A DNA stretch of 60,862 nucleotides from Candidatus Woesearchaeota archaeon (GTDB lineage: Archaea > Nanobdellota > Nanobdellia > Pacearchaeales > GW2011-AR1). This document shows, piece after piece, positions 18,433 through 51,412 of this stretch. The notes under the pieces are model-generated. The model was not told the DNA's origin and did no database searches. It saw only the letters and a program-made list of their open reading frames with translations. Made by a program: the position numbers and the translations under genes. The stretch is taken from NCBI GenBank assembly GCA_964358765.1, contig CAYHPN010000002.1, forward strand, positions 1 to 60,862, given 5' to 3'. Every line of letters starts with the position of its first letter. The stretch's first letter is position 1.

Positions 18433-20301
18433 ATGAAAACTGAAAATAAAAGGAAATTTCTTTCTTTAAATTATAATTATATAATTGTATTTCTAATCTT
18501 GATATATTTAATGGCATTTATCTCTGGACAAGTACCAGGATTAAGTAATATACAGGGATATATTATGCATAAAGATGGCACTACTCAGGCTCAAAGCAGT
18601 ACTAAAGTTAGAATAGTATCTAATTCAAGCGGGAATATAATTAATTTACTAACTTCTGGACCGCCCGGACATAGCGGATTTTATTCGACTAATATTAATC
18701 ATACAGAGGGAGAAAATTTCACAATTACTGCATTAAATTCAACTGCATATGGAATAAATATTACTACATTAATCAACTCTCCATCAACCCTTAGGTTAAA
18801 TATATCTATGAATAATACAAGGCCTGCGGAAACAGATTTGAATATTACTTCCCCCTCAAATGAGACTTCTGTTGTAAAATATGCTAATTTTAATATTAGC
18901 TTTAATGTTTCAGCAATTGGTGGACAGAATAGCTTAAATTGTAACGTAACTATTAATATTTCTAATGAGAATATTATAAATATTTCAACTATTGAAAATA
19001 AAACTAAACAATTAGGAAATATTAACTTGGGAACATCTTTAGCAGGATATTTTAATATGCAGGCAAATAACCAAGGTTCAAGTTATATAGCCTTAACAAG
19101 TGCCTGTTCAAGTGATGGATTAAATTTTGAAAACTTACAAAGTGAGTCTATTACAATCGATGTTTCAAATCAGCCTCCTCAATTACATACTATTCAAGGG
19201 TATATTTTTAATTTGAATAATGTTACTCAAGTACCTACTGGAATAAATGTAACTATAAATGCTACAGCTACGGGAAGTTCAATTTCCATATTGACTTCAG
19301 GTCCTCCAGGACACACGGGTTTTTATTCTACCACCATTTATGCTAGTGATGGAGAAGTTATTATTATTAGAGCAAATAATGGTACATACCATGGTATAAA
19401 AAATACAACTTTATTGAATTCTCCCAGCATCACAAGATTAAACTTGAGTTTAGATAGAGAGAATTTGGAACCTCCTATTGTTGATGATGTTGTTGTAGAT
19501 GATGAATTTTTATCCCCTACTGATGAAATTGATTTGACAGTTGCAGGGACAAAACTAATTAGCTGCATTGGAAATGTGAGTGATCCAAATAACTATACGG
19601 ACATTAAAAATGTAACTGCTATTCTATATGATATGAATAATGCATCTTTGACTTCGCAAGATGACAAAAACAACCATTATACAAACAATTCTTGCATTTT
19701 AACTAACTGTTCAGGAGAATCTTGCGGATTTGAATGTTCATTTGATGTTTGGTACTTTGCAAATGCAAATACCGATCTAGGATGGATATGTTATGTTACT
19801 GGAACAGATAATTCAAATACTAGCGGATTTGGAAGTGATGCAGTTTCTATAAATACTTTACTAGGAGTCGAATTTCCGGATACAATAGATTTTGGTAGTG
19901 TTGGAAACAATAAAGTTTCCAATGAAAGTTCAAATAATGTAACAAACAGAGGAAATGTAATGATAGATATAAGTCTTGATGGTTATGGAGGAACAGATGG
20001 AGATGGAAATGCAATGAATTGCAGTAATGGGAGAAATATATCTATTGGTTATGAAAAATACAACTTAACTGCGTCAAATCCAGGAGACTTAACCTTAGCC
20101 CAATTCGCAAGTTTATACAAAAATTTAACTGATAATGCTGTTAACGAAACTGAATTTAATCTTGATTTTAGAAAAAATGATACTTCTGATTTTATAGATG
20201 ATTTTAAATTAGCATACTGGAGGATATTTGTACCTGGCGGAATCGCAGTAAATACCTCTTGTTCAGGAAAAATCAATATTGGAGCAATGATTGATACATA
20301 A
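18433..20301 (+). CDS. Secreted protein with a GPPG-repeat head and module-B tail (start ATG 18433 preferred over 18307)
   Basis: ATG 18433 precedes the signal peptide and avoids an overlap with the previous gene. Two TSGPPGHxGFYS repeats are shared with 49460; the C-terminus is YWRIFVPGG..CSGKINIGA. Confidence 0.85.
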   Translation: MKTENKRKFLSLNYNYIIVFLILIYLMAFISGQVPGLSNIQGYIMHKDGTTQAQSSTKVRIVSNSSGNIINLLTSGPPGHSGFYSTNINHTEGENFTITALNSTAYGINITTLINSPSTLRLNISMNNTRPAETDLNITSPSNETSVVKYANFNISFNVSAIGGQNSLNCNVTINISNENIINISTIENKTKQLGNINLGTSLAGYFNMQANNQGSSYIALTSACSSDGLNFENLQSESITIDVSNQPPQLHTIQGYIFNLNNVTQVPTGINVTINATATGSSISILTSGPPGHTGFYSTTIYASDGEVIIIRANNGTYHGIKNTTLLNSPSITRLNLSLDRENLEPPIVDDVVVDDEFLSPTDEIDLTVAGTKLISCIGNVSDPNNYTDIKNVTAILYDMNNASLTSQDDKNNHYTNNSCILTNCSGESCGFECSFDVWYFANANTDLGWICYVTGTDNSNTSGFGSDAVSINTLLGVEFPDTIDFGSVGNNKVSNESSNNVTNRGNVMIDISLDGYGGTDGDGNAMNCSNGRNISIGYEKYNLTASNPGDLTLAQFASLYKNLTDNAVNETEFNLDFRKNDTSDFIDDFKLAYWRIFVPGGIAVNTSCSGKINIGAMIDT

Positions 20302-20315
20302 ATATTTTTATTAAA

Positions 20316-21107
20316 TCATTGAAGTTCAACAAAGAAGAAATATGGTGTTGAAGTTGTATCAGCACCATGCCCATCCTCTAGAACTATCATTTGAAAATCA
20401 TTATCTTGCTGGTTAAAACCATTTAATATACCTTCTTCAAGAATTGATGCAAATACAACTGAAGAAGTTGTTGGTTCATATAATAATACTTCTTCAAACT
20501 GATTTGCCCCTAATAATCCTGTTGCATTATTTAATTTAGTGCTTAGACATTCGGCTGAACTAAAAGATAAGGAAGCAGTTACAAATGCGTCATGACCTTC
20601 GCCTGCTGGAGTGAAAGAGAAAGTTTCATTTACTCCATCTAAGTCATCTGAAATTATATTGTAACGAGTTTCTAAAACTGTCAAGTTTGTTCCTGCAAGG
20701 TTAGTTGAGCCTGCGGAACCGACTGAACCTGTGGCATTAGCAGTGAAATTAAAACACTGTATACTGCTCCAAGTAATTGATGAATTTGTTGATGAATATA
20801 CCTCTCCTGAAGGTTCCGTTAATGTCCAGTTATATATTGCATTAGCGGAACTATCTGCTAGAGTTATTCCTCCTGTAACATTACCAAAATAACCCTGCCA
20901 GGTCTGAGTAACTGAAACTCCAGAAATCCCCAGATACGTTATATTTCCCGCATATGCTGAATTATTTCCAGAACCATCAGTAGGCGATGTTTGAGGTGTA
21001 CCAGCCGCGACCGTACCACCAGAAGGAGATAAAGAATAAGTGAATGAAGAAAAGAAAATTATAATTACTATTGAAAATAATAATATAAAACTTTTATTTA
21101 TACGCAT
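20316..21107 (-). CDS. Secreted module-A protein A3
   Basis: Signal peptide, then AGNITYLGI..TWQGYFGNVTG..DFQMIVLE..YFFFVELQ. Confidence 0.9.
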   Translation of the reverse strand: MRINKSFILLFSIVIIIFFSSFTYSLSPSGGTVAAGTPQTSPTDGSGNNSAYAGNITYLGISGVSVTQTWQGYFGNVTGGITLADSSANAIYNWTLTEPSGEVYSSTNSSITWSSIQCFNFTANATGSVGSAGSTNLAGTNLTVLETRYNIISDDLDGVNETFSFTPAGEGHDAFVTASLSFSSAECLSTKLNNATGLLGANQFEEVLLYEPTTSSVVFASILEEGILNGFNQQDNDFQMIVLEDGHGADTTSTPYFFFVELQ

Positions 21108-21108
21108 A

Positions 21109-22080: not shown

Positions 22081-25000
22081 ATGAATAAAAGAGGCATAAT
22101 TAGAGCAAGTATTTTTGGATTAATATTAATCCTTCTATTATTAATAGTAATACTTGTTCTCAATAGCTTAAATATCAGGGCTGAAATTGTAAAAGATAAA
22201 TATGTTGTTGGAGAAACAGTAAAAATAAATCTTGAAAATATAAAAAACTTTAAAATTAAGATATTGACTCCTTCTAAAACGATAGTGAAGGTAGGAAGTA
22301 AAGAAACCTTTGTTTTTAAGGCAAATGAAATTGGAAAATATAAATTTGTTTTAACTTATGGGGATAATCAAGAAGAATACAAATTTGATGTAATAGAAAA
22401 GGAAAATAAAACAGAATTAAGAAATCAACCAGTGGATGTAAATAAAACGGCGTATTATAGGAACAATTATGATAGAAAAAAAATGGAATTCAAAATAGAT
22501 CAAAATTCCATTGCAGGTAGTGAATTGAAATTAGTTAAAAAAAATGGAAATGATAAAGTAGAAATCCGAAAGCAGATACCCTCAACATGGAAAATTAAGG
22601 ATTCCAAGAAAATAAAATTAATTTTGGATGAGAACAACCAAGAAATAAACTTTAGCGGTAGTGATTTAAACAATGATAGTATTATCGATGAGATAAATTG
22701 GACAGTAACAAATTTAACTGGTGAACAGACATATAGTATTATAATTATTACTAATGCAGAACATCTGGATACAAACAGAACGTTTATTTCTGATATATAC
22801 GATTCAGTTAAAGAGCAGGACGGGATATGGAGCGAGAATATAGACGCAGGGGAGTATGTTAGGGTAACTTTTGAAATACCTTTGGACAATACTAGAGATA
22901 TAACAATTTGGCCAAGAGTAATAAGTGGAACTCCTAGAGTTGAAGTTTATGAAATAGGTGGGAGTGAATTAGTAGCTAGCTTTGATAATTTAAGGGAAAA
23001 TGAATATAATAAAGTATATTTAACTAATTTAATTGGAATGCTGGATACTTTTGATTTAAGGGTTGTTGGAGGAACAATTCAATTTGATCATATAATTGAT
23101 CCGTTAACTTCTAATTTTATTGATGGGGCGGCCACTGGAACAATAAGCACAAATGTCGCTGCACCCACAACTCTTACGGCATTAAGCACGGCTTTTCCTG
23201 CCGGCAACAATTTGGTGTTTGCATCCGTACAGGTGCTCAGTACTGATGGAGGAGCAGAAAATATTCCTGCTGGAGGATTAATCCTTTTAAGAAATGATGG
23301 GACGGCGCTTTCTTCTAACCAATATGCGATACAAGTTAGTACGGCAAACTTAAATAATAACTATTTCTTAATTGGTTTGGATAGTGGTGCTGGTGCCAAT
23401 GTTGGATACAATGTGACTGGATATTCCAGCGCCACTGCAGTTAATACAGAAGCAAAAATTACTGCTATTTCTGGATTGAGTTATGTAAATTTCAGCGATT
23501 CGGGTTCGGTAGCATTTTCTGCAGCAACTGAAACTGAAATTACGACTCTCCCTACAGAATTTTCTGCGGGCGGGAATGTAATAATTGCTTCCGTTCAGAT
23601 AGATAATGGTGCAGCTATCCAGCAAATTACTGCAGATAGCATAAAAATAAAGAATGGTAGTGGGGCAACACTATCTTCAAATGAATTTGAAATTAACTTT
23701 TCTTCTGCTGCCCCAACAGATAAGCAAAGTATTGTTATTCTTGCGTATGAAGAAAATGCCCCTGCAAATGCAGTATATAATGTCTCAATTATTGGTCCTC
23801 AAGCAGGCGATGCTGAAGTAAAACTCGCTGTTTTTAGACCGAGAGGTGCTCAATTTTTAGATGGGGCGAGCGTAAACCTGGGGAACGCAGTATTGACAAG
23901 CATAGGAAACATAACAAATAATTTTGCGAATAATTCAGAACTCTTAGTAATTGCAACTGGGCAGATAGATGATACCGATGCAGGTGTTGAAACTCTAGCC
24001 GCAGATACAGGATTTACTCTTCAAGAGATCCAAAACACAGTATCTGCTAACGATTTAATCATGTCTGCTTTTGCAGCAAGTCCGACTGTTGGATCAGGCA
24101 TAAGACATACTTTAATGTGGAGAAATTCTACATCAATTCAAGGAACAATTTATAATTTAACTGCGACTGCAAGCGCATTACAATTAAGGGCTGAAGCGAA
24201 AATTCTCATATTGCAATTATCTGATAAGATTGCTCCTTCGGTTACTTCCATAGTGGAATATCCTACGGATCCTGTAAATTATACTTTTGCAGGAGTATAT
24301 AATTTCAGCTCAATAATAACCGATGACGAATTAGGTACCGTGATATTTACTTTAAACGGAGTTAATTATACTACTTCAAATGTTTCTTCCACTTACAATA
24401 AATCATTTATAGGTCTAGGGGCAGGAACGTACAATTACAGTTGGTATGCAAATGATAGCGCAGGAAACATAAATAATAGTGAAAATGGAACCTATACTAT
24501 AAACAAAGCCATGCCAATGGGAAATCTGACAAACACTACTTCTTGGACTATTACATTTCCAACTTCGGTAACTGTTGGACTAGCGGAAGGAAATTTAGGC
24601 GATGGAGATGTAACTTATGTTGTGTATAGAAATAATGTTTCGGTTGGCACTGGCGAAACTATAGTGCTTGGAGGAGGAACCTACGTCTATCTTTTGAATA
24701 CGACTGGAGGAGCGAACTATACTGCAAATGTGAGCATGGATCAGGAAGTATTAACTGTTAATAGGGCGAACTCTGTACTTAATTTGACTTTAGGAGGAAT
24801 AGCAGGAAATGTCACAGTCGAAGTTGGAAGCACTGTTAATCTCACAGGATATAAATTAACTGGAGACCCTAGCGGATTAATTAGTTTGTATGTTGAAGGA
24901 AATTCAATTAACCAAGGGGCAGGCAATATTTCCAATTTGTCCACTTTTAATTTTGTTGGAATTTATAATATTACAGTCATTTATTCAGAAAGCCAGAACT

Positions 25001-28000
25001 ATTCGCAAAGTTCTTTAACTTATTATATTCTTGTAAATGACACGACTAAGCCATTATGGAGAAACCAAAATCAAAGTGGTAATGCCGTTGGACAGGGAGA
25101 AATTAATAATTTATGGGTAAACTGGACTGATAATTATGCCCTAGCAAATGTCTGGCTTGAGACAAATGAAAGCGGAAGTTGGCAGAATTACACTCCAAGA
25201 AAAGCAGGATTAACTATAAATGATTTTTCAGGTACTTCTGAAATATTTATTGACCCTGTTTCTGCCAGCGCCACTATTAGTTCCGTTGATGAAGGATTTG
25301 TAAGGCAGGGCATCAATTTAAGTTATAACTACGATTCCGCATTTGGCACAGATACCTTTCATGTAGTGGTAAATACATCTGCGATTAACATAAGCGCATA
25401 TCAAAATATTTCATATTATATCAAGGTAGATATTGCAGGATTTCACGAGACAAATTTAATAGTTATAAGTAGCGGGGCTGCATGTGATGTTACGACTCCG
25501 CAAACAATTTCTGGAACTGGTTTTACTCTTATTACAATAAATATTGCAGATATTACCGGGGGTTGTGACTTGAACAATATTGATCAATTTAGGATTAGAA
25601 TTGGTGACGATAGTGACGCTTCGACTGGAACGGGAAACATCACTTTAGATGAATTATATTTAACAAGTGATTTATTAAGGGAATCAATAATTAACTTTAG
25701 TTGGAGAAATTCATCCTTATCTGGAGGAAGTGTGAGCTGGAGAATATACATGAATGACACTTTAGGCAATTTAAATAGAACAGATATAATGACATTTAAT
25801 ATTCAAGACTTAGTATTTCCCCAATGGAGTAATAACCTAAGCACTCCTGAGTCGCCTCAAACATATAATTCAACAAGAAATTATCAGTTCAATACAACAT
25901 GGACGGACAATGTGAATATTCAAACGGTTAGAATTCAACATAATTTTACTGGAACGATGCAAAATTATTCAATGAGTGGAAGCGACGGAAACGTATATTA
26001 TTATGATTTTACAGGCATTCCTACAGGAACATATACTTGGCAGATTATTGCAAACGACACAAGTGGAAACGTTAACCAAACTGGATTTTATATATACACT
26101 GTGAACAAAGCTTCAAGCGAAGTCAATTTAACACTTGACGGAATTGACGGGAATGTTACTGTTCAAGTTGGAAATAATAATGTGAATCTTACGGCTTTTA
26201 GATTAAATGGGGAAGGAAATATTAAATTATATAATAATGGAACATTGGTTAATGAGGGGTCTCCTGCTATTTTTAATATTACTAATTTTACTCAACTGGG
26301 AGATTATAATATAACGGTAATATACGAGCAAACTCAAAATTATACTTCGAGTTTTAGAACCAATTATCTTTTTGTAAGAGATAATTTGTTCCCAAATGTT
26401 ACATTAAATTCTCCAATTAATGGACTAAATTCTTCAGTAAATTATTTAATATTTAACGCAACGGTAAGAGAGGATTATAATTTAACAAATGTAAGTTTAA
26501 TGGCAAATTTCTCTGGAAGTTTTATTATTAACCAAACAAATACTTCTGGAATTAATGGAGATTATTTATTTAATGTGACAAATATTGCAGATGGGGGATA
26601 TATATGGGCAATAATAGCATGTGATGGTTCAAACAATTGCAATCAAACGGAAAATAGAACTTTATTAATCGATAGTGTGAATCCTCTTATAGGGTACGGA
26701 ATCGGTACGGACGCGGATGGAAGTAATTTTACCAGAAATTGGGTTTATGTTAATGTGACGGTTACAGAACTAAATGAAGTTAATATAAGCTATAAATTGT
26801 TTAATAATACTGGACTTTATAATGAGAGTATTTATACAAATGGGCAAAGAACGATTAATTGGACGGGTTTGCCTAATGGAATTTATACCTATAACGTTAG
26901 TATAACTGACCACACGAATAAAATTAATTCGACTACTACAAGACGGATAACATTGGATACGATTGCGCCAAATTGGAGCGGGAATGTTACTAGCCCGGCA
27001 AATCCCGCAACTTATACGCCAGAGGGATTTTATCAATTTAATGTTAGTTGGACTGATAATGTAATTGGAATACAAACAGTGTTTATTGAACATAACTTTA
27101 CAGGGATTTTTGCAAATTATTCAATGAGCGGGAATAGTGGAGCAGTTTACTTTTATAATAGGACAAATCTAGCTGCGGGAGGGTATGCCTGGAGAATGTA
27201 TGCAAATGATACTTTAAATAATAGAAACCAAACAGATTTATTTACATATACTGTTAGTAAGTCAAATCCTTTGCTAAACTTGACTCTTGATGAGGTTGAT
27301 GGTAATAAAACAGTTGAAGTTCATACAATTGTAAATTTAACTGCATATAGATTATCTGGAGAAGGAATTATAAGTTTATACAATGATGGAGTTTTAATAA
27401 ATTCGGGTGATGGACCACTTGAGAATTTAACTTCATTTAACAACACTGGATCATACAATATCACTATTGTTTATGAAGGTACTCAGAACTATACTCAAAA
27501 CTCTAGGACTAATTATGTAATTGTCCAGGATACTGAGTTTCCTACAATAAGTCAAGAATCTCCAGTAAACTTTTATAACATTAGCAGTAGAAACGTAACT
27601 TTTAATGTTACGGCAAATGATAATTATAATATTACAAACGTTAGCATATGGGGGAATTTTTCGGGCCCATATATCATAAATCAAACAAATTCGTCAGGTA
27701 CAAATGGCAATTATAGTTTTATAATTACTAATATTGCAGATGGAAGGTATAATTGGAGTGCTCAGGTTTGCGACAGTTCAAATAATTGCAATATTACCTT
27801 AAATAGAACAATAACCATTGATGCGACGCCCCCAGTTATAAGTGCGGGAGCTATAAATGCTACAAATATATCATTGAATGGATACGTAAGGATAAATTGT
27901 ACAGTTACGGATGCTCTGATAGGATTAGATACTGTTTTAATCGGGGCTGAGAAACCAACTTTGCCACAAGAGAACTATTCAACTGGCATTCTTGCTGGAA

Positions 28001-31674: not shown

Positions 31675-31803
31675 ATATTAACTGATTACAACTTATTGCC
31701 TTGGCACCTATTTAATTTAAAAATTCCACATTAATCTTTTATTTTATCCACATTCGTGGTTTAATCCACTAATCTGCTTTGAGGTATTACTGATAATGAA
31801 AAT
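31675..31803. repeat. Conserved ~130-bp non-coding element, copy 1
   Basis: Collinear with 59005-59134 and roughly 80% identical by eye. Confidence 0.85.
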
Positions 31804-40800: not shown

Positions 40801-43778
40801 ATTGAAAGATTTCCGCTAGCTAATGATGAAATAAACAACGTTCCATTTGAATAGGAATTATTATAATCTAAAGTTAAATTTAAAGCATTATTTTTAAACC
40901 ATCTCACTGAAACATTCATTGATTGATTATTTTGATCTGCAACATTATCATAACAGTTGAGATTGCTACTTGAAGAATTTAATCCATTTGTTGAATTAAT
41001 TTTAGGAAGAGGAGCTACTGGGGCGGTGTTTTCAAGATAAATTAAAACATTATCTAATCTTTGAGCACTTGTATCACCCGCATTATCATCAGGAGTCTCT
41101 CCAATTCCTACTCCTGCCCTTCCTGAAGCAATATTTGAATCAACTGCTGAACAAACTACATTATTTCCATCATAAACTTGGATTAAAGTTCCAGATACTT
41201 TTAAAGTAACATTGTCTCCAGTAGTGAATTGGTTGTCTGCTCCACAAGAAGTATTAAGATTTGCTTCTGTACCGCTGACTGCTCTCCATAAATAGGTATT
41301 TGCCGCAGTTGCACTAAAACTAAATACATATGCATTAGCCATTGTTGCATCAGATCTAACAGTTAGGTAAGAATAATCATCTCCAGTATCTTGTACTGTG
41401 TAAGTGGCTTTAATCATTTGATTTGCGACCCAAGGCTGAGAAATGCCTGCATAACCTGCTGAACCATCATTTCCAGCTCCACTACCAATTAATTGATTTG
41501 AATTTATTTCTAAATCTGAACCTGAACTAAATATTTCTGTCCAACCAGTTCCTAAATTGGGAGTATGTTGAGTAAATAAATTGTCCCCATCTGTATCAGT
41601 AAAAGTATCATTAAAAACTAAGACCATATTATCTTCAGGAGGGTCAATAATATGGTCAAATTCTAATGAACCTGAAACGACTCTAAGGTCAAAAATATCT
41701 TGTTCTAATGAGAGATTGGCTAAAATAAGTTTATTATATACATTCTCATTTATTGGGGAAAACTCTCCAATCTTTATCGAACTATTAAATTCATATACTT
41801 CAACTCTTGGATTTCCAGAAACAATTCTAGGAAAAATAGTAATGTCGTTTCCATTGGTTAACGCCCTTTCAAATTTTATTCTAACATATTCATTGTTATT
41901 TACTGGTGAACTCCAAATATTATCCTGCTCTTTAACTTTATCATAAATATCTTCAATAAATAATTTATTTTCATCTAAATGCTCTGCCTTTATTACTACT
42001 ATAATCTGAAATGTCTGAAATGATAAATGGGGCACATTCCATTCTATATAATCCAATAAACCATCTTTGTCTGTGTCTATTGCATTAAAATCTATGAACC
42101 TGTTTTCTTCTTTCCAGAATATCTTTATTGAATTTTTATCGGAAGTCAGTTCTTCTATATTTGCGTAGGCCAAAACATTTTCATAATGTAAATTGCTAGG
42201 AGAGCTAATTTCTACTATTTTTTCTTTATATGATAATACTTTCTCTTCTTTTTTAGGTGGCTCTGTAAAATATTCTATTTCCATATTTGAAAAATTTTGT
42301 TCATTTATTAAAATTATGGTTTTATTTCCTATTACGCTAGATACATAATTTACTGGTAAACCTGTTAATTTATTAATGACTGTAAAATTTATTGAAATTG
42401 GAATTTCCACTGTATTTTCTTTAACAACTTTTTTCCATTTAACTGGAAGATCAATTTCTGCGAAATACTGAATTTCCTCAATTGAATTATCAACTACATT
42501 AAAAGAGTAAACAGTTTTTTTGTTTCCAATTATTAATTCTAATGAATAAACACCAATTTGATCTAAATTGTATATGAAGAAGTCATTTGAACCAACTCTT
42601 GAAATTTTCCCATTTGAAGGAGAAGTTAAGATTAATTCATAGCTACCCAACGTCCTTAAATTTATCTTTAGTCTTTCTCCTAAAGAATATGAATTTGAGT
42701 TTTGAAAATTAAACTCAATAATATTTCCAACAACTATATTAAATGTTTGGTCGCTTAAATGCGGAGCATCCCATTGTATATTATCATAAAGTCCATTATT
42801 GTTCATGTCAAATAGATCAAAATCCAGATATTCATCTTCTTCATTCCAAAAAATAGAGACCATGCTTTCTTTAGAAACTTCTTCTGGTAGATTTACATGG
42901 GAAACAACATTTCTATAATGCATTCCTTTTGGTGAAGAAATTTTAACATGCTTTTCTTTTTCTGAAACGAGAGCTTCTGATAATATTGCAGGATCTGTAT
43001 AATATTCTATCCCCATTGGAACATTTTCATTATCAAGAGTAATTGTTATATCTCCTAAATTATCATTTAAACTGATTAAACGAGAGAATGTGTTCTTAAT
43101 TGGATTATTTGAAACTTTAAATTCTGATTTTTCAATCTTGTTATTGATAATTTTATAGGCGGTAATATTTTTCGCCTGGATAGGAATATCTAATTTTATT
43201 TCCCTAGTTTTACCATTTATTATTTTAGTCCATTTAACCTGCTTATCGATTTCTACCCTTTCATTATTAATCTTAATTCTATTTTCTAGAATTTTATTAT
43301 TGAACTCTATTCTTTTAGAATAAGATTGAGATTGAAAGTTGCCTTCTTTTGAACTTGATTCACGCAAGATTGGTTTAACCTGTTCATTAAAAGTTTTAGG
43401 AGGGTTTTCTTTAATAGATTCTTTAATGTTCGAACTGTTGATTTCCGTATTATTTGCCAAGACTTCAAAATAAAATTCCTTAGTTATTTCGCCGTATGAT
43501 AAAATTAAATTGTATTCTCCAATTTCCTCTGGATTAAATGTAAAGAAATCATTTGATCCTTTTTTAATAAAAGAAGTTGAAGGCGTATTTATCTTAATTG
43601 TATAATTCTGAAAATCTTGAAGATTGATTTTTACCTTATCACCTAGGAAATAAGTGTTCTTTTCAATTATTGCTGAAGCATTTTTAGTTGAAAATGAAAT
43701 AATTAATACAGATATAACTAAGGCTATAAAAAATGTAAATACGCCTGTTTTAATTAAACCTCTCTTATTCATTCTCAA
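31803..43778 (-). CDS. Giant secreted glycoprotein G2 (3991 aa): duplicated prodomain, IIDP, lectin-like domain, two propeller+FN3 blocks, tandem Ig repeats, CARDB and C-terminal module-A-like domain
   Basis: WxxPHLSxQTF twice, FDHIIDP near aa 712, SVxVSAxxxxxFVxxWYD repeats, WNVTCxD Ig repeats, and C-terminal AWQFVYG..YDYEIRIPARLREY..VFYTEVT. Confidence 0.92.
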   Translation of the reverse strand: MRMNKRGLIKTGVFTFFIALVISVLIISFSTKNASAIIEKNTYFLGDKVKINLQDFQNYTIKINTPSTSFIKKGSNDFFTFNPEEIGEYNLILSYGEITKEFYFEVLANNTEINSSNIKESIKENPPKTFNEQVKPILRESSSKEGNFQSQSYSKRIEFNNKILENRIKINNERVEIDKQVKWTKIINGKTREIKLDIPIQAKNITAYKIINNKIEKSEFKVSNNPIKNTFSRLISLNDNLGDITITLDNENVPMGIEYYTDPAILSEALVSEKEKHVKISSPKGMHYRNVVSHVNLPEEVSKESMVSIFWNEEDEYLDFDLFDMNNNGLYDNIQWDAPHLSDQTFNIVVGNIIEFNFQNSNSYSLGERLKINLRTLGSYELILTSPSNGKISRVGSNDFFIYNLDQIGVYSLELIIGNKKTVYSFNVVDNSIEEIQYFAEIDLPVKWKKVVKENTVEIPISINFTVINKLTGLPVNYVSSVIGNKTIILINEQNFSNMEIEYFTEPPKKEEKVLSYKEKIVEISSPSNLHYENVLAYANIEELTSDKNSIKIFWKEENRFIDFNAIDTDKDGLLDYIEWNVPHLSFQTFQIIVVIKAEHLDENKLFIEDIYDKVKEQDNIWSSPVNNNEYVRIKFERALTNGNDITIFPRIVSGNPRVEVYEFNSSIKIGEFSPINENVYNKLILANLSLEQDIFDLRVVSGSLEFDHIIDPPEDNMVLVFNDTFTDTDGDNLFTQHTPNLGTGWTEIFSSGSDLEINSNQLIGSGAGNDGSAGYAGISQPWVANQMIKATYTVQDTGDDYSYLTVRSDATMANAYVFSFSATAANTYLWRAVSGTEANLNTSCGADNQFTTGDNVTLKVSGTLIQVYDGNNVVCSAVDSNIASGRAGVGIGETPDDNAGDTSAQRLDNVLIYLENTAPVAPLPKINSTNGLNSSSSNLNCYDNVADQNNQSMNVSVRWFKNNALNLTLDYNNSYSNGTLFISSLASGNLSIGQNWSCALRYFDSINYTSWVNSTGNVTIIPLPKPTISIVSPLSQNYTTTIINFNTSLNMAGSWCGLSLNGASNISMTQFNSTYFNYTNSSMSQGSHTVVFACNNTEGNMNSSSGIRYFGVDSIPPQVTIVNPQNITYTSSSIPFNFTLNEAGNCRYTLNSGVFNYTMTANSSNTGFNATNSSIADGSYTIRAYCNDTVGNVNYSTSLIFSKYLVNYTPVIGDPITNQTWTVNQNVIYYLNFSNNGTASNNYMVNFTNTSGASYIALNQSSFNNIAPGSTVFLELNISSSTLNTINITLNVTSINDTTFRDSASFKTTFLQAFQFSSNNITSISVAPFDYDKVIIAWCDDTDDDISLGIFNTSGILQEQIYDVDTTAGSCTANSVGYSVSVSALDSNNFVVSWYDSVDSDITFKILNSSLSNLTDNVDVDSDSGASAAVSASAFNSTAFILGWYDATSSDSTFRTYTSSGTAISVETDADTDSGTTGNSVDVSAINSTAFMFAWFDGGQNDASVITYSVSGTALSSIFDVDGGAGTSESVSISVLNSSLAVLSWVDRGGGTPVNDASFSTITTLSTSISGTQDIDTNVGDTGRPLRVSSLAEDRFVLSWYDSSTDVGVSAQTLLTDLTQLSSETVIQTTTLSFQDVASEEYSTGIQLCENNFVVAISNISTQGFFKPFYSNGTIWSGICPTNVPQILNLTVSSITGLSAIVNWTTDILANSTINYGATQSLGTIQSSNNPVLNRAFTLLGLSSNTLYYYNVTSCFEGRCNTTGTHNFTTTDGDRTPIIGEPVTQQIWSVNTNVRYILNFTNNGTVASDYIVNISNVSGASYATLNQSYFTNIQNGTTIFFEINTSAQTSNVYTISFNVTSVNDSTKYDQSSFITNFYTLSQFSNNSVTSVANAPLDFDKLLVAWCDDTEDDISSAVFNTSGKLLYQPYDVDTSAGACSANGAGHSVDITPLTKNLFVVAWYDSVDDAIRFQMFNSSLSNTTGIVNADTSAGNSYAVSVSAINSTAFVMGWHDETGTGGSSDDTVAVYSSSGSTILSATDVDTNVGGSSQSIEVSAINSTAFAVGWFDDGGNNNDVFFQTYSLSGSAISSAITVDSNGGNSRSVSVAAINESKIVIGWSDINDNLISFQVYLPNGTVSVSTTSVDANPNTGRDTRVSAITQDDFVISWYDDNTDVGTYAQTLIINGTNISQTNTVESNSDQYSDVASELFTTQIQLCENAYIVSFANTTFQAIWEAFYPNGTSWSGICPTSLPSIFNVNVSQITISSAKVNWSTDVESNSTINYGTTPSLGTVLGNNFPKTSHTFNLTGLSGQITYFFNITSCIDGRCNSSGVYNFTTTTVDVTPPLVSLVFPANNSNITDGFSFYFVFNVTDTSAIGNCTLYTDGTPTEFRSSISKDVNETFYHYLSNGQYLWSVSCTDQYGNTNITANRTVNVNYTDISFQRVLYETFTSSFSNNVTAVIRLNNSQDTTQNSVTWNIPPSTLRNIVNASTQIIGANGAVIPYGSVVDFSSSFSASHANVEATWKIYISNSTGITLLCQNGDDGSSGTPLAGTITGQNTTCISSNIRLSPSDRLLYLIDAFNTNGGTTRTITHDWDSPTSSFVAINISTEGFLRVNLSYPTSDPAPSLNSNFNVTCQAYCSIGTCRNTQVYIQRNTSTENWTNINASGNIILSPGETNPHSFGNLSTTLVSSNFSLNGNALSTNNIRCIAVSTYDSANGTSTQVVTVGGAAAAAPVIYLTSPSNATWFNTPNITINYNTTDVNSNIANSTLILNGLRNQTNQSAVNNAGNSSFNLTNLASGTYTWTVNVTDATNLEGTNTSFRTFFIDTQKPSINLSAPQANSSFQVSYVEFNFTAFDNMDTTLSCNLTIDSVVQLSGISSPNGTLINTTISSLSTGTHFWNVTCIDEALNTNTSLTRNFTILDLPPLVSLITSNLSYSTTGNITLIYNATDNNGFSSAQLVLNSNLNMTNQSAVLNGQYNNFSLLNLNEGTYTWTVNVTDSGGLNATNLSVRTFMVDKRAPNISLNLPANNSYSNSSTVNFNFTVIDSIDTILLCNLTAGEKSDLNFAANNGSLTNRQITGFTDGEKIWNVTCFDDAGNFNISQNWVVNITEYPSISLNTANNSFYNSTSFILNYTPSDNTALDYCDLYIDNAFNQTDDTISNGVQNSFTVSGISEGVHTWYTACNDTIQLRNQSQIRSFTVDLDGLNISLIYPQDGANLFVLTLNLSFNATDNIDTTLDCNITVNSIVVNSSTVTSGALTNRSITFATGGTKIWNVTCVDDSSNRITSITRNFSLEQGPSVALGDPINNTFQNISSAIFYYDISDSNDNLANSTLILNGQNNQTNQSALLNDATNNFAITLPDGIYLWTVNVSDLTNLVGTDASFRVLTIDTKQPSIILNYPPNTTTLSTNNITINYTAFDNMDTNLTCNISIDESMVVINIPSYNATEVINYVTRSDGNYLWNVQCIDDSGNLNFSETRDFTVEAPPNVTLQSPQNGNISNINNLTFIYYPSDAIGIFNCSLIIDNAINSSSGTITANANNSFTVNGISEGIHNWTVACTDIFPDFNLFTAQLNNFTIDNTAPNITLITPENNTNQLRAVIFNFTAFDNLDADLNLSCNFYIDNSLNLSSINLTNGSIVSRTVYNHALGAHSWNVSCVDDARNRGWSSKWQYNVTLADLMVNSTSINFNTTSPSENDSVLINATIYNLVNVTVSNITIAFYNGDPRTTGRQIGSNQTIAVLSPLSQTTASIVWSAELGTNIIFVVVDPPYSSNGSIEEWTETNNIANNSITTGAWQFVYGEINSNTKYDLADSQNNSVVRWESVNFDTGNIYVTDSESIVSWATLQAIGKNTTNQNTTNDFSDIDSLLNMTNYTDSVTTLFSNGTSPRNITNYLVFNIYVNNVPIANSTNNTNFYTGILWDMSDNNATNNSQFDITDKEDLIFSTQINKDKTGAYGTYDYEIRIPARLREYRTTQTSSVVFYTEVT

Positions 43779-44492: not shown

Positions 44493-45086
44493 ATGATAAA
44501 AGCAATTGTTTTTGATTTGTCAGGCGTAATTTTTACAAGAATGAGCAACATACATGAAATATTGGAACCTATAATAGGTTTAAAGAAAGACGAAATAACT
44601 TTAAAAATGAAAAATAAAAGTTTTTATGATTTCTTAGAGGGAAAAATAAATGAAGATGATTATTGGAAGAAAATAATAGGGGGCAATAGCTGGAATATTT
44701 CCATTGATGAATTAAAAAAAGCAATGAGAGATAACTTTAGAGAAATTGAAGGAACTTTAAATATTATTAAAAAATTAAAAAAAAATGGTTTTTTACTTGG
44801 ACTTTTATCTTCACATACAAAAGAATGGACTCAATATTTAAATCAAAAATACGATTATGAAAAATATTTTGATGGAATTGTATATTCTTTTAACGAAGGC
44901 GATACAAAGACAAACATTTCTTTATATAAAGAAATACTATTTAAATTGAAGGTTAGTTCTTATGAATGTATTTATATTGATGATAAAGAAAAATATATAG
45001 AACCTGCAAAAATATTGGGAATGAAAACTATTTTGTTTGAGGATTCTGAAAAGTTAAAAAATAGATTAAATTATTTTTTAAGATGA
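44493..45086 (+). CDS. HAD-superfamily phosphatase (YihX-like subfamily IA)
   Basis: MIKAIVFDLSGV, LGLLSS, K in GDTK, and CIYIDD..AKILGM. Confidence 0.9.
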   Translation: MIKAIVFDLSGVIFTRMSNIHEILEPIIGLKKDEITLKMKNKSFYDFLEGKINEDDYWKKIIGGNSWNISIDELKKAMRDNFREIEGTLNIIKKLKKNGFLLGLLSSHTKEWTQYLNQKYDYEKYFDGIVYSFNEGDTKTNISLYKEILFKLKVSSYECIYIDDKEKYIEPAKILGMKTILFEDSEKLKNRLNYFLR

Positions 45087-47002
45087 TAATGAATAAAACC
45101 AGTATAACTCAATTGTTAGAGAAAGGTAATTTTGGAGAGTACACTTTATTGGAAAAAGTTGGCGATACTAGTAAAAGTCTAGTTTATATTGGAAAACACC
45201 TAAGATTAGAAAGAATAGACGTTGTTAAAATTCTTAAAGATCCGACAGATGGGGACAGAATACAACAATTTTTGGACGAAGGTAAAAGACTTGTTGAAGC
45301 TGGTGAACTTGATAATCTTCCCCATGTATATTATGCAGGTGAATATCAAGGATTCCCCTATATCGTAACAAGTCACATTAAAAGCGATGAAGGAAATTTA
45401 GAAGATGTTGTTAAATCAAATAAATCACTACCTCTCAAAGATTGTTTGGATATTTTGATTGATAGTTCCAGAGGATTATATAATCTTCATAATATGGGAA
45501 TTATACATGGAGATGTTAAACTCAAAAATCTAATTAGGGGAGAAAGTAAAAATATTTTACTAGGAGAAAGAAAGAAAACATATTTAATTGATTTAGGTGG
45601 GAAATTATCTGTTCAATCAAACTATCCTGGTGATGTGGAAGCTCTTGCAAATTGTATGTTAGAAGTTACAAATATTTCCGATATAAATACTCCGCAAAGA
45701 ATAAGAGATTATTTAGAAACGGTTTCACGAAATAGTGAAAAAACTAACGCACAAGATTTCCATTATCAAATTTTAAGATTTAGAAAGATAATTTCAAGAA
45801 GAGAATTTATAAAAAAGGCGACAATTATTGGGGCCTGCACTTCTCCTATTATGGCTGGATCTGTTACTTTATATAATAAACTTAAATACGAAAAAACAAT
45901 TGATTATGTTATAGATGAGATAAAAAATACCCCCACTCAAGATCATGGAGGATTAGAAAGATTATTTAAAAAACTAAAGTTTAGGATATGTGATCAAAAA
46001 ATTGGATGGTTAAGTGAGGAAAAAATAAATAGCAAGGAATTGCCTTTTGCAACAACAAAAGACGGAAATTATTTTAAAATGGATCCAGGTTATTGGACTG
46101 ATGGTTTTTGGTCTGGAATTTTATGGGAGGCTTATTTAACCACGAAAGAGGAGAAATTTAAGATTTTGGCAGAAAAAAAAACACTTGAAATTGATAGTAT
46201 GAAAGAAGATGAAGACGCAAATAATGCGGTGAGATATTTTTATTCTCATGCTAAAGCCTATGAAATTACTGGAAAAGAGGTATTTAAGAAAAGGGCCAGT
46301 AAAGGTTTGGAGATATTAAAAAATAAATTTGATGAAAGAATTGGGATTTTTTCCATTAATAAGGAAAAATTAGCCTCTGAAGCTGGAACTATGATGGATT
46401 TTGTCCCCTTTCAATTATGGGGTTACAAAATTACAGGAGACAAAGATTACCTAAGTAAAACTAAAGAACATGTGCAAAATGTTTGCAAATACAATATTCG
46501 AGATGATGGTTCAGTAAGGAGAGCTGCAATTGTAAATTCCGAGACAAAGAAAGTTATTGGAGAGCTTAATCAAAGTGGCATAACAAATGAAAGTACAGTA
46601 TCAAGAAATCAATCCCAAGTAATTATGGGAATTGTTAAATATTTAGAGATTAACCCTGATGATGAAATTGTTAATAAATACATGGAAAGAATAATAGATT
46701 ATTATACCTTGTCTGAAAATCTCACTGAAGATTTTATTCCTTATTTTGATTTTAGTGCAGAAAGAAATGGCAAGTATCCAAAGGATAGTTCAGCAGCTTC
46801 TATGTTTATTTATGCAATTAAAAACTTAAAACAGTATAAAAAATATTATTATCCAATTAAGAGATCATTATGCTTAAACTATCTTTCTAGCAATTTAGAA
46901 AATTATGAAGGATTAATAAAAAACGGATGCAGCAATTGGAAAGAAAATAATTATACCCAGAGTTCTTTAATTTGGGGAGATTATTTTTTTATAGCAAGTT
47001 AA
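45083..47002 (+). CDS. Ser/Thr protein kinase fused via an SRR/hydrophobic segment to a GH88 (unsaturated glucuronyl hydrolase)-like domain
   Basis: Kinase motifs VVKIL, FLDE, IIHGDVKLKN, LIDLG; then ISRREFIKKATIIGA; then GH88-like WTDGFWSGILW, TMMD, SRNQ, KDSSAAS, SLIWGDYFF. Confidence 0.85.
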   Translation: MIMNKTSITQLLEKGNFGEYTLLEKVGDTSKSLVYIGKHLRLERIDVVKILKDPTDGDRIQQFLDEGKRLVEAGELDNLPHVYYAGEYQGFPYIVTSHIKSDEGNLEDVVKSNKSLPLKDCLDILIDSSRGLYNLHNMGIIHGDVKLKNLIRGESKNILLGERKKTYLIDLGGKLSVQSNYPGDVEALANCMLEVTNISDINTPQRIRDYLETVSRNSEKTNAQDFHYQILRFRKIISRREFIKKATIIGACTSPIMAGSVTLYNKLKYEKTIDYVIDEIKNTPTQDHGGLERLFKKLKFRICDQKIGWLSEEKINSKELPFATTKDGNYFKMDPGYWTDGFWSGILWEAYLTTKEEKFKILAEKKTLEIDSMKEDEDANNAVRYFYSHAKAYEITGKEVFKKRASKGLEILKNKFDERIGIFSINKEKLASEAGTMMDFVPFQLWGYKITGDKDYLSKTKEHVQNVCKYNIRDDGSVRRAAIVNSETKKVIGELNQSGITNESTVSRNQSQVIMGIVKYLEINPDDEIVNKYMERIIDYYTLSENLTEDFIPYFDFSAERNGKYPKDSSAASMFIYAIKNLKQYKKYYYPIKRSLCLNYLSSNLENYEGLIKNGCSNWKENNYTQSSLIWGDYFFIAS

Positions 47003-47417: not shown

Positions 47418-48302
47418 CTAACTATTTAATTCCAAAATTAAGGGCAATATATTTCTTAAACCAATAAGAATCGCGGATAAATGTTGGTCTCCTTTTTTTG
47501 ACAAATTAATTTTATTTGAAAGCTCCTTTGATTCCAAGAAAAGCAATTCTAATTGAGCATCATCATATTTATTATATATAGCATGTAATTCTGATAATTG
47601 TTTATTTAATAATCTTAAATTCTCAATTAAAGAAAGAGAAATTCTATCTAGATTAAGTGAGAGAAAATTGCAAATATCCTTGTATTTGTCTGCAGTTTCT
47701 TCTAAACTTTTTACTAAATAATAATATTTAGGAGTTTTCTTAAAATCAGAATGCCCTCTTTTAATTAGCACCCTAAGGCAGTAGTTAGAAAGTTTATTTA
47801 TTGATTTGTCAAGTTTTGATATATCTTTAAGCTTTAACGCATCTTTGCTTTTTATTGCGTTTAAACTTTCATTGGATAAGTCAATTAATAAGTACCATAA
47901 TCTTTTGAATGCGTGATTATATTCATTTTTTTCGTTTCCTGTTAAATCTTTAATAGTACATGAATTTTTATCTTCTAAGATTATATCAAAACCTATTAAT
48001 TCTTCCTTCACTATTTCTCTTATTTCTTTGATAAACGCCGGGTCCTTAAAATGAATTATAATTTCATCAAAACCCAACCTATATGCTGAAGTTATTGAAC
48101 TTTTGCCAATTCTTCTTAAGTTTCCAATATATATTTCTTTTTTTCCATAACTGGTATCTAAATTTTTACTTATCATTAAATCGTGCCCTAGTTCTTCTAC
48201 CTCAAGCTCATCTCCCTTTTTTATGTTTTGATTTCTGGCCCAGATAGAAGGGAGAGAGATAGTTAAAGTTGAAGGGCCGTGAAGAATAATTTTTCTTTTC
48301 AT
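47418..48302 (-). CDS. Archaeal AbrB-PhoU-type regulator
   Basis: MKRKIILHGPSTLTISLPSIWA..IKKGDEL; SAYRLGFDEI; DKSINKLSNYCLR; LEETAD. Confidence 0.85.
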   Translation of the reverse strand: MKRKIILHGPSTLTISLPSIWARNQNIKKGDELEVEELGHDLMISKNLDTSYGKKEIYIGNLRRIGKSSITSAYRLGFDEIIIHFKDPAFIKEIREIVKEELIGFDIILEDKNSCTIKDLTGNEKNEYNHAFKRLWYLLIDLSNESLNAIKSKDALKLKDISKLDKSINKLSNYCLRVLIKRGHSDFKKTPKYYYLVKSLEETADKYKDICNFLSLNLDRISLSLIENLRLLNKQLSELHAIYNKYDDAQLELLFLESKELSNKINLSKKGDQHLSAILIGLRNILPLILELNS

Positions 48303-48831: not shown

Positions 48832-48853
48832 TATAAGAAAAAAGAGGTTTCAT

Positions 48854-49279: not shown

Positions 49280-49459
49280 ATGTCCTAGCTTTAGATATTT
49301 TAAATTAAAAATCTCACCCGTTATTTAGGATAATTAATTAATAAAAAAGCACTAGAAAATTGAAAATTTATCCCGAATATATAAAAAATAAATTAGAAAA
49401 ATAAGGCCTTTTTACTTTACTTTAAACAAGTTTATAAATTATAAAAAGTCTATTTATAC

Positions 49460-51412
49460 ATGAGAAATACGAAAGGAGGAAAGATACTTACTTGGAAGTT
49501 TATAATTATATCAATAATGATGTTTATTTTTTCTTTTTATCTAATTTACGCACAATTAATTCCAGGATTACATACAATTCAAGGTTATATTTTTAATAAT
49601 GGAGGAAGTCAAGCACCCGCAGGAACAAAAGTCTGGATAAATGCAACTACAACGGGAAGTTTTACTTCATTATTAACCTCCGGACCGCCTGGAAACACTG
49701 GATTTTATTCTTCTTCAATAAATGCGAGTGATGGAGAAAGTATAATTGTTACTGTATTTAATGCTACTGCATATGGGAGAAATTCAACTTTATTATTAAA
49801 CTCTCCTTTATCTACTAGATTTAATTTGACTATGAATAATACTAGACCTGGAGAAACAGATATTAATATTACTTCTCCATCTAATGGTGCATCCTTTGGA
49901 CAGTATGTAGTTTTTAATGTTAATTTTAGTATTACTGCTATTGGGGGGGAGAATAGTGTAAATTGTAATGTTACAATAAATATTTCTGATGAGAATATAA
50001 TGAATATTACAACTCTAGAAAATAAAACTAAACAATTGGGAAATATTAACTTAGGAAATTCTTTAGGGGGATATTTCAATATTCAGGCAAAAAACCAGGG
50101 ATCTAGTTATATAACTTTGACAAGTGTCTGTTCAAGTGATGGAATTAATTTTGAAAACTTGAAGAGTGAAACAATTGGCGTAAGTGTATCTGCTCAACCG
50201 CCTCAAATGCATACCATACAAGGATATATTCTAAATATAAATAATGTTACTCAAGTTCCGACTGGGACAAATGTTACTATAAATGCTACGACTAGTGGAA
50301 GTTACATGTCAGTCTTGACTTCTGGGCCTCCTGGACAGACTGGATTTTATTCTACTACTATAAACGCAATTGATGGAGAACAATTTATTGTTCATGCACA
50401 GAATGGAACGTATGAAGGGACAAAGACCATAAATGCAGTAAATAGTCCAGGCACTACAAGAGTTAATGTAACACTAGATACTAAGATTATTCCAGATTTA
50501 TTTATTAATTTTAGCGACATTTTGTTTTATGGAAACTTAATAGAGAATGTAAACATAACTGTAAATGCTACTATAAAAAACATTGGAAGGGCAGATGTCG
50601 GTAATTTCACAGTTCAGTTTTTTAAAGAAGATCCAGATTTTGGAGGAACTTTGATACAAGGAAATTTGACAATAAACAATCTTTCAAAAGGACAATCTGC
50701 AACCTTATCCGTAAACTATACAACAACAATAGGAAATAACAATATTTTTGTTCTTGTGGATGTTCCTTTTTCCGTGAATGGAAGTTATTCTGAATCAAAT
50801 GAAACAAACAATAAGGCAAATAATACTTTGAATATTACTGCATGGCAGACTATTTATGGAAATATTTCTATTGACAAATTGATAGGAGATAACTCAACTA
50901 GGAATATAAGTATATGGTATGATGAACAGAGTTTCTCTGGAAATGTCTTTATCAGTGATACTGAAAATACAATAAACTGGAAATCTTTGCTGGCAATTGG
51001 CAATAACCTAAGTGGAACTAATACAACAAATGATTATTCAGATTTAGATGCCTTATTCAATATGACTATTTTTAGAGATTCTGTATCAAATAAATTTACA
51101 ACTGATGGAAATCATCCAAGAGGCTTGACAAGCATCCTTGCATATCAGAGGAATATAACTAATATCTCGGTTATAAATTCTACAAATACCTCTAACTTTT
51201 TAACCGGCATATTATGGGATAGCTCTGATGATGCAGCAGATGGAGAATTCAGTCAGGATGATAAGGAAGACGTAGTATTTTTTACAAATGTAAACAAAGG
51301 TATGCAGGGAGCGTATGGAACTTATGATTATGAGATAAGCATCCCAGTAAGATTAAGGGAATATAGAAATAATGATGTACAAAATGTTTTTATTTATTTT
51401 GATATCAATTAA
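49460..51412 (+). CDS. Secreted protein with a GPPG-repeat head, CARDB and module-A-like tail
   Basis: The first ~340 aa are paralogous to 18433..20301. The last ~300 aa are paralogous to the G2 C-terminus (ESNETNN, AWQTIYGN, YDYEISIPVRLREY). Confidence 0.9.
   Translation: MRNTKGGKILTWKFIIISIMMFIFSFYLIYAQLIPGLHTIQGYIFNNGGSQAPAGTKVWINATTTGSFTSLLTSGPPGNTGFYSSSINASDGESIIVTVFNATAYGRNSTLLLNSPLSTRFNLTMNNTRPGETDINITSPSNGASFGQYVVFNVNFSITAIGGENSVNCNVTINISDENIMNITTLENKTKQLGNINLGNSLGGYFNIQAKNQGSSYITLTSVCSSDGINFENLKSETIGVSVSAQPPQMHTIQGYILNINNVTQVPTGTNVTINATTSGSYMSVLTSGPPGQTGFYSTTINAIDGEQFIVHAQNGTYEGTKTINAVNSPGTTRVNVTLDTKIIPDLFINFSDILFYGNLIENVNITVNATIKNIGRADVGNFTVQFFKEDPDFGGTLIQGNLTINNLSKGQSATLSVNYTTTIGNNNIFVLVDVPFSVNGSYSESNETNNKANNTLNITAWQTIYGNISIDKLIGDNSTRNISIWYDEQSFSGNVFISDTENTINWKSLLAIGNNLSGTNTTNDYSDLDALFNMTIFRDSVSNKFTTDGNHPRGLTSILAYQRNITNISVINSTNTSNFLTGILWDSSDDAADGEFSQDDKEDVVFFTNVNKGMQGAYGTYDYEISIPVRLREYRNNDVQNVFIYFDIN

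Follow-up and report, generated by a model that had tools for sequence, protein, structure and literature searches.

Why would one archaeal genome place the same N-terminal head on two different C-terminal tails? The question is raised by two genes, here called HB and HA, in a stretch of 60,862 nucleotides (nt) from a Candidatus Woesearchaeota archaeon (contig CAYHPN010000002.1 of assembly GCA_964358765.1, positions 1 to 60,862 of the forward strand), which we refer to as the window. The window lies on contig 2 of a 69-contig, 1.75-Mb genome, its G+C content is about 30%, and secreted or membrane proteins account for most of its coding. Metagenome-assembled genomes (MAGs) with homologues of its genes are labelled Pacearchaeota, Woesearchaeota or Nanoarchaeota. 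A first-pass annotation had taken the two tails, modules A and B, for interchangeable display or incorporation tags of two parallel structures. We arrive at a different view, in which our confidence is evenly divided, namely that the tails are docking modules derived from the subunits of one DPANN surface system. The two genes, together with a giant gene that shares one of the tails, contain the following parts.

18433..18531, + strand: probable true start of HB (Met43 of open reading frame (ORF) 18307..20301) and Sec-type signal peptide (from the translation; the cleavage site is our own reading)
18532..19461, + strand: HB head, residues 76-385, consisting of a GPPG domain, an immunoglobulin (Ig)/CARDB-like domain and a second GPPG domain (BLASTP)
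19462..20301, + strand: HB tail, module B, residues 386-664, in which the signal peptide and the N-terminal strand seen in free B are both missing
49460..49549, + strand: HA signal peptide (from the translation; hydrophobic segment at residues 8-37)
49550..50488, + strand: HA head, residues 31-343 (BLASTP, tree)
50489..50824, + strand: HA CARDB domain (PF07705), residues 344-455 (Pfam)
50825..51412, + strand: HA tail, module A, residues 456-650, an S-like domain without the N-terminal extension of S (hhalign)
31806..32738, - strand: CARDB and module A at the C-terminal end of a giant protein of 3991 amino acids (aa), ORF 31803..43778 (BLASTP)

HB is encoded by ORF 18307..20301 (664 aa) and HA by ORF 49460..51412. 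With its start at 18433, HB has a normal signal peptide and does not overlap the gene before it, which ends at 18350. Residues 76-385 of HB and 34-342 of HA are identical at 200 of 310 positions (65%; BLASTP, E 3e-136), the two heads are 75.6% identical in DNA, and past the head BLASTP found no significant similarity between the proteins (next best E 2.2). The head contains an internal repeat around a middle domain, and HA residues 213-310 align with the first HB domain at 43% identity (E 3e-19). The middle domain gives a CARDB match below the cut-off of 22.7 bits, both in HB (residues 176-263; E 0.0028, 18.3 bits) and in HA (15.3 bits). The common head of two GPPG domains around an Ig domain, as originally described, is thus borne out. 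In Pfam, the first GPPG domain of the head was unmatched and the second matched only DUF3869 at E 0.81. A carboxypeptidase-regulatory-like or prealbumin-like identity for the GPPG domains was rejected, as neither PF13620 nor a relative appeared at E up to 1.

The two tail assignments of the first-pass annotation also hold. Residues 426-661 of HB match the free-standing ORF 13770..14765 with 107 of 240 positions identical (45%, E 2e-55), and the hidden Markov model of the B family spans HB from profile position 55 to 325. In HA, residues 345-454 form a CARDB domain (PF07705; E 4.1e-11, 43.4 bits, above the cut-off of 22.7), whose profile match in the PDB is 2kut, an uncharacterized protein. Residues 344-649 of HA correspond to residues 3681-3990 of the 3991-aa giant of ORF 31803..43778 (- strand), with 42% identity over 311 aa (E 5e-65), and the CARDB and A end of this giant is the best match of our profile A3 (1.5e-129). 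A tblastn search of the 1.75-Mb genome found exactly two copies each of the head, of module A and of module B.

Since heads are repeated in this genome, an assembler could in principle have been misled, and one of the two genes could be an assembly chimera. We consider the chance of this negligible. The two heads are only 75.6% identical in DNA, and the HB head/tail junction (nt 19462) is bridged by Logan contigs in four of four groundwater runs, with 0-1 differences and no joints; these four runs represent two samples of one study, which possibly include the source sample, and the bridging concerns the HB junction only. The exact HA protein has been recorded from three contigs. A search with the head returned HA, a near-identical HB with two different residues on another contig, and 15 further proteins, namely 7 with A, 5 with B and 3 (among them a partial one) without either tail. 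Full-length proteins of both architectures accordingly exist on other contigs, and 96 of the cluster representatives described below have the head with A or B. Read mapping, by which the first-pass annotation could have been refuted, speaks against a chimera at the HB junction. A shufflon or inversion linking one head to alternative tails was also set aside, because HA and HB lie on the same strand, 30 kb apart, with heads of only the DNA identity given above. Separately, two 18-nt stretches in or just past the HB tail (19883-19900 and 20305-20322) were also present in three of the four runs on much deeper contigs (listed depths of 19-86, compared with about 5 for this genome); they probably represent a short word from another organism or element.

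What, then, are the two tails? Each of them has a free-standing counterpart, as module A resembles the free S proteins and the HB tail resembles free B. The free subunits of the window are as follows.

12148..12951, + strand: free S subunit type a (S1), 267 aa, with signal peptide, extension of about 45 aa and beta-rich domain
12967..13767, + strand: free S subunit type b (S-b), 266 aa, with its stop 2 nt ahead of the B start
13770..14765, + strand: free B subunit (B1), 331 aa, with signal/hydrophobic N-terminus, short N-terminal strand and two beta-sandwich domains
20316..21107, - strand: third S paralogue, 263 aa, just past HB on the opposite strand, 62% identical to 12148
915..1763, - strand: fourth S copy, a 281-aa open frame with signal peptide

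The three intact S paralogues (12148, 12967 and 20316, the last on the - strand) are secreted proteins of about 265 aa with identities of 62% and about 30%, and the S family occupies seven places in the genome. The copy at 915..1763 (- strand) has no ATG, GTG or TTG before codon ~163, that is, upstream of the TTG at 1274, and it may use a rare start codon or have lost its start recently. When a profile of 42 A tails was compared with one of 60 S proteins by hhalign, they aligned with a probability of 97.6% (E 3.9e-12) over 178 columns, A 5-195 to S1 70-267, and both end in a common motif (FYVEL / IYFDIN). By profile comparison, module A is a remote homologue of the free S family (12148, 12967, 20316) over its full length, a relationship that the first-pass annotation had overlooked. 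A and S showed no relation to B in hhalign (probabilities 0.1% and 10.8%).

The free B protein has 323 homologues and no Pfam family. Its N-terminus is basic and then hydrophobic, followed by the consensus VxA|xVG, by NVTVxTxLxVG and by two beta-sandwich domains, and its AlphaFold2 (AF2) model has a predicted local distance difference test (pLDDT) value of 75.7. The position of the VxA|xVG site after the helix suggests cleavage by signal peptidase I. We also considered a type IV pilin-like class III signal and rejected it; a Glu in the helix is conserved, but a Gly five residues before it is found in only about 9 of 36 sequences.

The folds of the two families gave few leads. In Foldseek searches against the PDB, free B returned only generic tandem Ig-like rows (E ~1e-4, TM-score at most 0.36), and S returned none at E 0.001 or better (best 0.24), with Z 2.8 at best in a wide VIA search. 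Rows for CanA, TasA and bundling pili with the S model were insignificant (7uii E 0.37, 8aur E 0.57, 7ueg E 1.0, TM-score ~0.1). Sequence profiles of the PDB gave no match for S, only chance-level rows for B (E 0.026 and 0.98) and only the CARDB part for A3. Pfam and NCBIfam returned nothing for S, B, module A, the GPPG head domains or the AHYIVG head domains introduced below. The ESM Atlas places S and B in archaeal clusters without a name, and a WxL-domain row at 0.75 serves only as a lead. Our literature searches found no publication on the S or B families or on their cluster, which does not prove their absence from print; they returned only general work on DPANN attachment and articles on strand-donation fibres.

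The fusions differ from the free subunits at one end. In the AF2 monomer model, S1 has a signal peptide, about 45 conserved residues and a beta-rich domain with pLDDT ~75-90, and residues 26-37 and 40-68 have pLDDT below 50. The A alignment begins at S1 residue 70, and the S extension of residues 26-69 is missing from module A. A similar pattern is seen for B in the sampled genomes, where matches to the B profile start at about position 42-70 inside long open frames (the fusions) and at about 1-27 in frames of about 300-330 aa (free B).

We modelled mature S1 (residues 27-267) in complex with the CARDB domain and module A of HA, in three runs and with three controls; the alignments contained 48 rows for S1 and 35 for the HA piece. 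The interface score ipSAE was 0.64, 0.65 and 0.62, and the best of the three controls gave 0.00; the mark applied to this score is reached by 116 of 157 solved complexes and by 2 of 215 mismatched pairs. The runs shared at least 86% of their contacts, the partner pLDDT was at least 66, and the S extension, of low confidence in the monomer model, was positioned with low error. In the predicted interface, S1 residues 56-69 lie in register along the first strand of A (119-130), beside the last strand of A (302-306), and part of the S body lies on A 138-149. The model supports binding of free S to the A tail of HA. Considering that the head takes the place of the N-terminal extension in the fusions, the modelled interface suggests strand donation in which the fusions may be acceptor-only subunits at a chain end.

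The means by which these proteins stay on the cell bear on the same question. HB and HA each have a single hydrophobic segment, at the N-terminus (residues 51-79 and 8-37), and a scan for hydrophobic segments found no membrane anchor beyond the N-terminal signal segment in HA, HB, S, B or the giants. These proteins contain 3.4-6.9 N-glycosylation sequons per 100 aa. HA and HB are probably secreted, unanchored and heavily N-glycosylated surface proteins. As they have no anchor besides the signal peptide, the fusions and the free subunits would need protein contacts to remain on the cell.

We surveyed 301 genomes of the phylum with cut-offs of our own (B E 1e-20, S E 1e-20, CARDB plus A E 1e-40); the tallies include G243, flagged as unpublished, which is positive for S and A. 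B was found in 41 genomes, S in 76 and CARDB plus A in 67. A occurred together with S in 61 of the 67 genomes with A, B with S in 33 of the 41 with B, and B with A in 29; all three were present in 28. The A tails mostly terminate open frames of 2000-7500 aa. A same-genus genome, G250 (95% complete), has a tandem of B-fusion and A-fusion whose heads are unrelated (BLASTP E 0.6), and a profile search of this genome found no free S or B.

An alternative reading of these data is that domains were shuffled in the ordinary way among Ig-rich surface proteins and do not co-assemble, with the tails as non-interacting beta domains and free S and B as unrelated small exoproteins. DPANN surface proteins are highly modular, our searches found no known fold or family, and G250 lacks both free subunits, all of which would suit this explanation. 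However, the module is always C-terminal, the synteny is conserved over dozens of genera, and A accompanies S in nearly every genome that has it. The complex prediction also passed its mark when all controls stayed at 0.00, and the secreted fusions have no other means of retention on the cell. Taking both sides together, we consider domain shuffling without co-assembly unlikely.

Does one system contain both tails, or does each tail belong to a structure of its own? To the features given above, three further parts of the neighbourhood have to be added.

15050..18350, + strand: a pair of membrane-anchored proteins of the cluster, one of 409 aa with CARDB-like domains and one of 689 aa with a coiled coil
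3107..5302, - strand: membrane HerA/FtsK-like ATPase with extracellular N-terminal part, transmembrane (TM) segment and DUF87 ATPase (Pfam)
54341..58045, + strand: second, longer HerA/FtsK-like ATPase (Pfam), located 3 kb downstream of HA and sharing 54% identity with 3107..5302 over 662 aa

We compared 76 loci around B homologues, in which ORFs were labelled by BLASTP against the window proteins, and two layouts emerged. Type I consists of a giant (1300-2800 aa, ending in CARDB plus A), an optional winged-helix regulator on the opposite strand, S, S and free B. S adjoins free B in 49 of the 76 loci and the order S-S-B is kept in 39; the giant with its A tail, with or without the regulator, lies directly upstream of S-S-B in 25, and two more are cut by a contig end. 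The S-S gaps are mostly 25-100 nt. The gap from S to B falls within -11..+11 nt in 34 of 53 adjacent pairs and is mostly 1 nt; in the window, S-b stops at 13767 and B starts at 13770. Judged by this spacing, S-b and B are translationally coupled in a single S-S-B operon. Type II consists of a B-fusion, an optional free B, membrane proteins like the 409-aa and 689-aa ones, and an A-fusion, after which the other strand encodes the ATPase and a protein like the 714-aa one. In 20 loci the genes of the membrane pair lie side by side, with B- and A-fusions flanking them. A B-fusion is present in 19 loci, a mid-size A-fusion in 11 and both fusions in 9.

The window itself has the order ATPase (3107), 5299, 8274, regulator, S, S, B, small gene, 15050, 16281, HB, S (- strand), regulator (- strand) and two giants, with HA 30 kb away beside the second ATPase (54341). 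It is a rearranged mixture of the type I and type II layouts. The products of ORFs 15050 and 16281 each have a signal peptide and a C-terminal TM segment. The protein of 3107..5302 matches DUF87 (1.9e-12), HerA_C and FtsK_SpoIIIE in Pfam, and in type II clusters such an ATPase adjoins the A-fusion. Secretion, assembly and DNA transfer are candidate roles for the two ATPases. The longer ATPase has a CarboxypepD_reg domain outside the membrane, and its neighbourhood houses the fusions in G250.

Tags for two separate parallel surface structures, with one head loaded on both, would be consistent with the lack of any sequence relation between A/S and B. Each family can also exist alone, as S occurs without B in 43 sampled genomes and B without S in 8 of 41, and the fact that both fusions lack the N-terminal extension of their own family would suit two homotypic polymers. 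On the other hand, S-b is coupled to B, the giant with its A tail precedes S-S-B in about a third of the loci, and in nine loci one cluster contains the A- and B-fusions along with the ATPase and the same pair of membrane proteins. Therefore, one system with two types of subunit fits better, and we regard two parallel structures as improbable. From the first-pass proposal we keep the incorporation tags, as the tails are constant and portable and the head is their cargo; the free paralogues, the missing anchor, the co-occurrence of A with S and the modelled binding all agree with this. The two parallel structures we do not keep.

If the tails are the docking parts of one system, what keeps the head the same on both? 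In all nine other loci that have a B-fusion (about 400 aa) and an A-fusion (about 625 aa), an N-terminal domain of about 105 aa, spanning AAHYIVG to LNSPP, is common to the two proteins, with identities within the locus of 100, 98, 84, 83, 74, 69, 61, 59 and 50%. Protein similarity stops at the head/tail junction in these loci, and DNA identity ends there too (about +330 to +430 nt) in eight of the nine pairs and earlier in L069. Two Woesearchaeota MAGs, L071 and L063, have head duplications that are almost identical in DNA. In L071 (2110..2902 and 6927..7719) the identity is 96.5% over 723 bp and reaches about 320 bp upstream of the start codon, so that the two genes probably share their promoter as well; in L063 it is 99.75% over 405 bp. 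In a tree of these 18 heads, same-locus pairs are sisters in five of nine cases, and the tail label changes 6 times (6.3 on average after shuffling). A tree of 12 GPPG heads places those of HA and HB as sisters with 100/99 support, and the tail label is again unclustered, with 4 changes on 6 rows where shuffling gives 3.9 on average. P0125 and P0126, of A type and B type on two metagenome contigs, have heads that differ at one position. The heads group by genome and not by tail.

The first-pass annotation had called for a survey of the heads found on either tail. Among 1.84 billion cluster representatives, 174 proteins matched the head at E 0.001 or better; of the best 150 of these 174, 61 have B and 35 have A, no protein has both, and the remaining 54 are without either tail. 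Among these 54, 40 are under 500 aa and may be fragments, and 84 of the 98 head proteins of 500 aa or more within the best 150 of 174 carry A or B. The head is almost dedicated to A and B docks, and B tails were found on other heads too. Head types vary by clade (about 105 aa of AHYIVG type, about 310 aa of GPPG type, LamG-like in G250), and the tails stay 40-65% identical. Homology between the GPPG and AHYIVG heads was considered and was not established (hhalign gave a probability of 3.5% and E 0.012 for 45 columns in register). As the head is homogenised between two otherwise unrelated genes, it would be the part under joint functional constraint, and so a candidate host-recognition element.

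The same facts could be read with the polarity reversed, so that the N-terminal head would be the constant piece recognised by the cell's own envelope or machinery and the tails would be the outward-facing functional parts. The head does follow directly after the signal peptide and is the part that stays similar within a genome, along with the upstream sequence in L071, and most long head proteins among the best 150 of 174 carry A or B. But it is the heads that differ by clade and the tails that stay alike, and the tails are also found on unrelated heads and on the giants, as parts with free paralogues. Since the usual logic of adhesins is a variable head on a constant tail, we regard a reversed polarity as highly doubtful.

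We thus return to docking modules of one surface system. This reading draws on observed homologies, gene order, co-occurrence and the grouping of heads by genome, and on a predicted binding of S to A. In the mechanism that we propose, the C-terminal tails would be copies of two small secreted structural subunits of one operon, S (about 260 aa) and B (about 330 aa). Free S and B would build a surface fibre or lattice by giving an N-terminal strand to the neighbouring subunit. In the fusions, the head, or thousands of residues of Ig-like repeats in the giants, would replace the short N-terminal extension of the free subunit; the fusions would then be acceptor-only subunits found at the chain end only, with the tail docked and the head displayed, presumably at the tip. 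Repeated recombination at the head/tail junction would keep the same head on both tail types. The head may bind a host, and the ATPase may have a role in the system.

In its most specific form, the proposal is an undescribed fibre of Pacearchaeota and Woesearchaeota, built from S and B by chaperone-free strand donation, with giants or small-head proteins as acceptor-only caps and with a gene-converted head; we offer this form tentatively. As a part of it, and with the same reserve, the S/B fibre and the membrane HerA/FtsK-like ATPase cluster may be the host-attachment apparatus of uncultured symbionts. In a stronger variant, two caps would pair through an S-B contact and form a two-headed adhesin.

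Several points weigh against docking on one system. Neither Foldseek nor VIA gave a fold match linking S or A to a known strand-donating fibre subunit, and the support for binding is one model prediction between two homologous domains. No RNA run is listed for the HB stretch. The pairing of heads within a locus holds in only five of the nine loci, and the two copies of the head share no more than 33-38% identity in G036, G093 and G081. The sampled genomes with S alone or B alone count here as well, and G250, in which the profile search found neither free subunit, indicates that fusions can exist without them.

The uncultured Pacearchaeota and Woesearchaeota are abundant archaea that probably depend on other cells. 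Our analysis turns hypothetical proteins into a testable parts list, namely the S and B families, the head family and the membrane ATPase cluster. It also provides a rule by which docking proteins can be recognised: their C-terminal module is S-like or B-like and lacks the N-terminal extension. In addition, the homogenisation of the head clearly exemplifies concerted evolution that is restricted to a single domain.

Some further genes of the window deserve mention. After HA, 51426..53262 (- strand) encodes a Lys-rich protein of 205 aa, a Cys-rich membrane protein of 145 aa and a coiled-coil protein of 214 aa; the 145-aa and 214-aa proteins recur beside the A-fusion in G250 (E 9e-13 and 4e-11), and the Lys-rich one matched other loci only. 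A 66-aa ORF at 14883..15083 (+ strand), between B and the gene of the 409-aa protein, looks like a ribbon-helix-helix regulator and is present in 2 of the 76 loci (E 1e-5). The two giants, 22081..29613 (+ strand, 2510 aa) and 31803..43778 (- strand, 3991 aa), have common N-terminal regions (31-33% identity) and Ig arrays. Only the 3991-aa giant ends in CARDB plus A; the 2510-aa giant has a different C-terminal end and is followed by a 507-aa He_PIG/Big_9 protein. At 45083..47002 (+ strand), a protein kinase domain is fused to a Glyco_hydro_88-like domain, an unusual pairing, and beside it lie a HAD hydrolase and, on the opposite strand, an AbrB/MazE-PhoU fusion (47418..48302).

How does this arrangement compare with known surface fibres? 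The tip adhesins of chaperone-usher pili, of the FimH and PapG type, consist of an N-terminal binding domain and a C-terminal subunit-like domain and stand at the end of the chain. HA and HB are like them in having a head and a subunit-like tail without the extension that the free subunits carry, and the likeness is one of analogy between unrelated families. In pilins, an incomplete Ig-like fold is completed by a strand of the neighbour; our model lays S1 56-69 along A 119-130 and 302-306, and no pilin fold match was obtained. No sequence relation and no fold relation detectable by Foldseek or VIA links S/A to chaperone-usher pili, and the scanned ORFs of the window gave no chaperone or usher match in Pfam or NCBIfam. 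The present organism is an archaeon and has no outer membrane. Unlike the chaperone-usher systems, one head here has two unrelated tails, the tail also ends giants of 2000-7500 aa, and a HerA/FtsK-like ATPase is part of the cluster.

Small secreted beta-rich subunits that form chaperone-free fibres by strand donation are found in TasA/TapA, in AbpA bundling pili and in the CanA cannulae of Pyrodictium, and TapA is a related accessory subunit in the TasA system. S and B resemble them as small, secreted, beta-rich proteins with an extension, and the structures of these fibres appeared here only as insignificant fold rows. We know of no head-bearing fusions of the HA/HB kind for the TasA, AbpA or CanA fibres.

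A further parallel is the thread of Sulfolobus acidocaldarius. In its published account, the subunit Saci_0406 is made with a Sec-type signal peptide that signal peptidase I removes, is heavily N-glycosylated and donates an N-terminal tail strand to the next subunit; its operon partner Saci_0405, of related fold, is a putative cap at the chain end (PMC9715654). The S and B families are like the thread in their signal-like N-terminus, conserved extension, dense sequons and operon partner, with donation here as a prediction. A profile search of PDB sequences and a fold search found no similarity of S or B to the thread. For the thread a donor-only cap is proposed, whereas the fusions described here look acceptor-only and have large heads. 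By analogy, these comparisons suggest that the logic of the FimH-type tip adhesins and of the thread may apply to the S and B families, with the subunits passing a strand along the chain and a head-bearing, subunit-like protein at its end.

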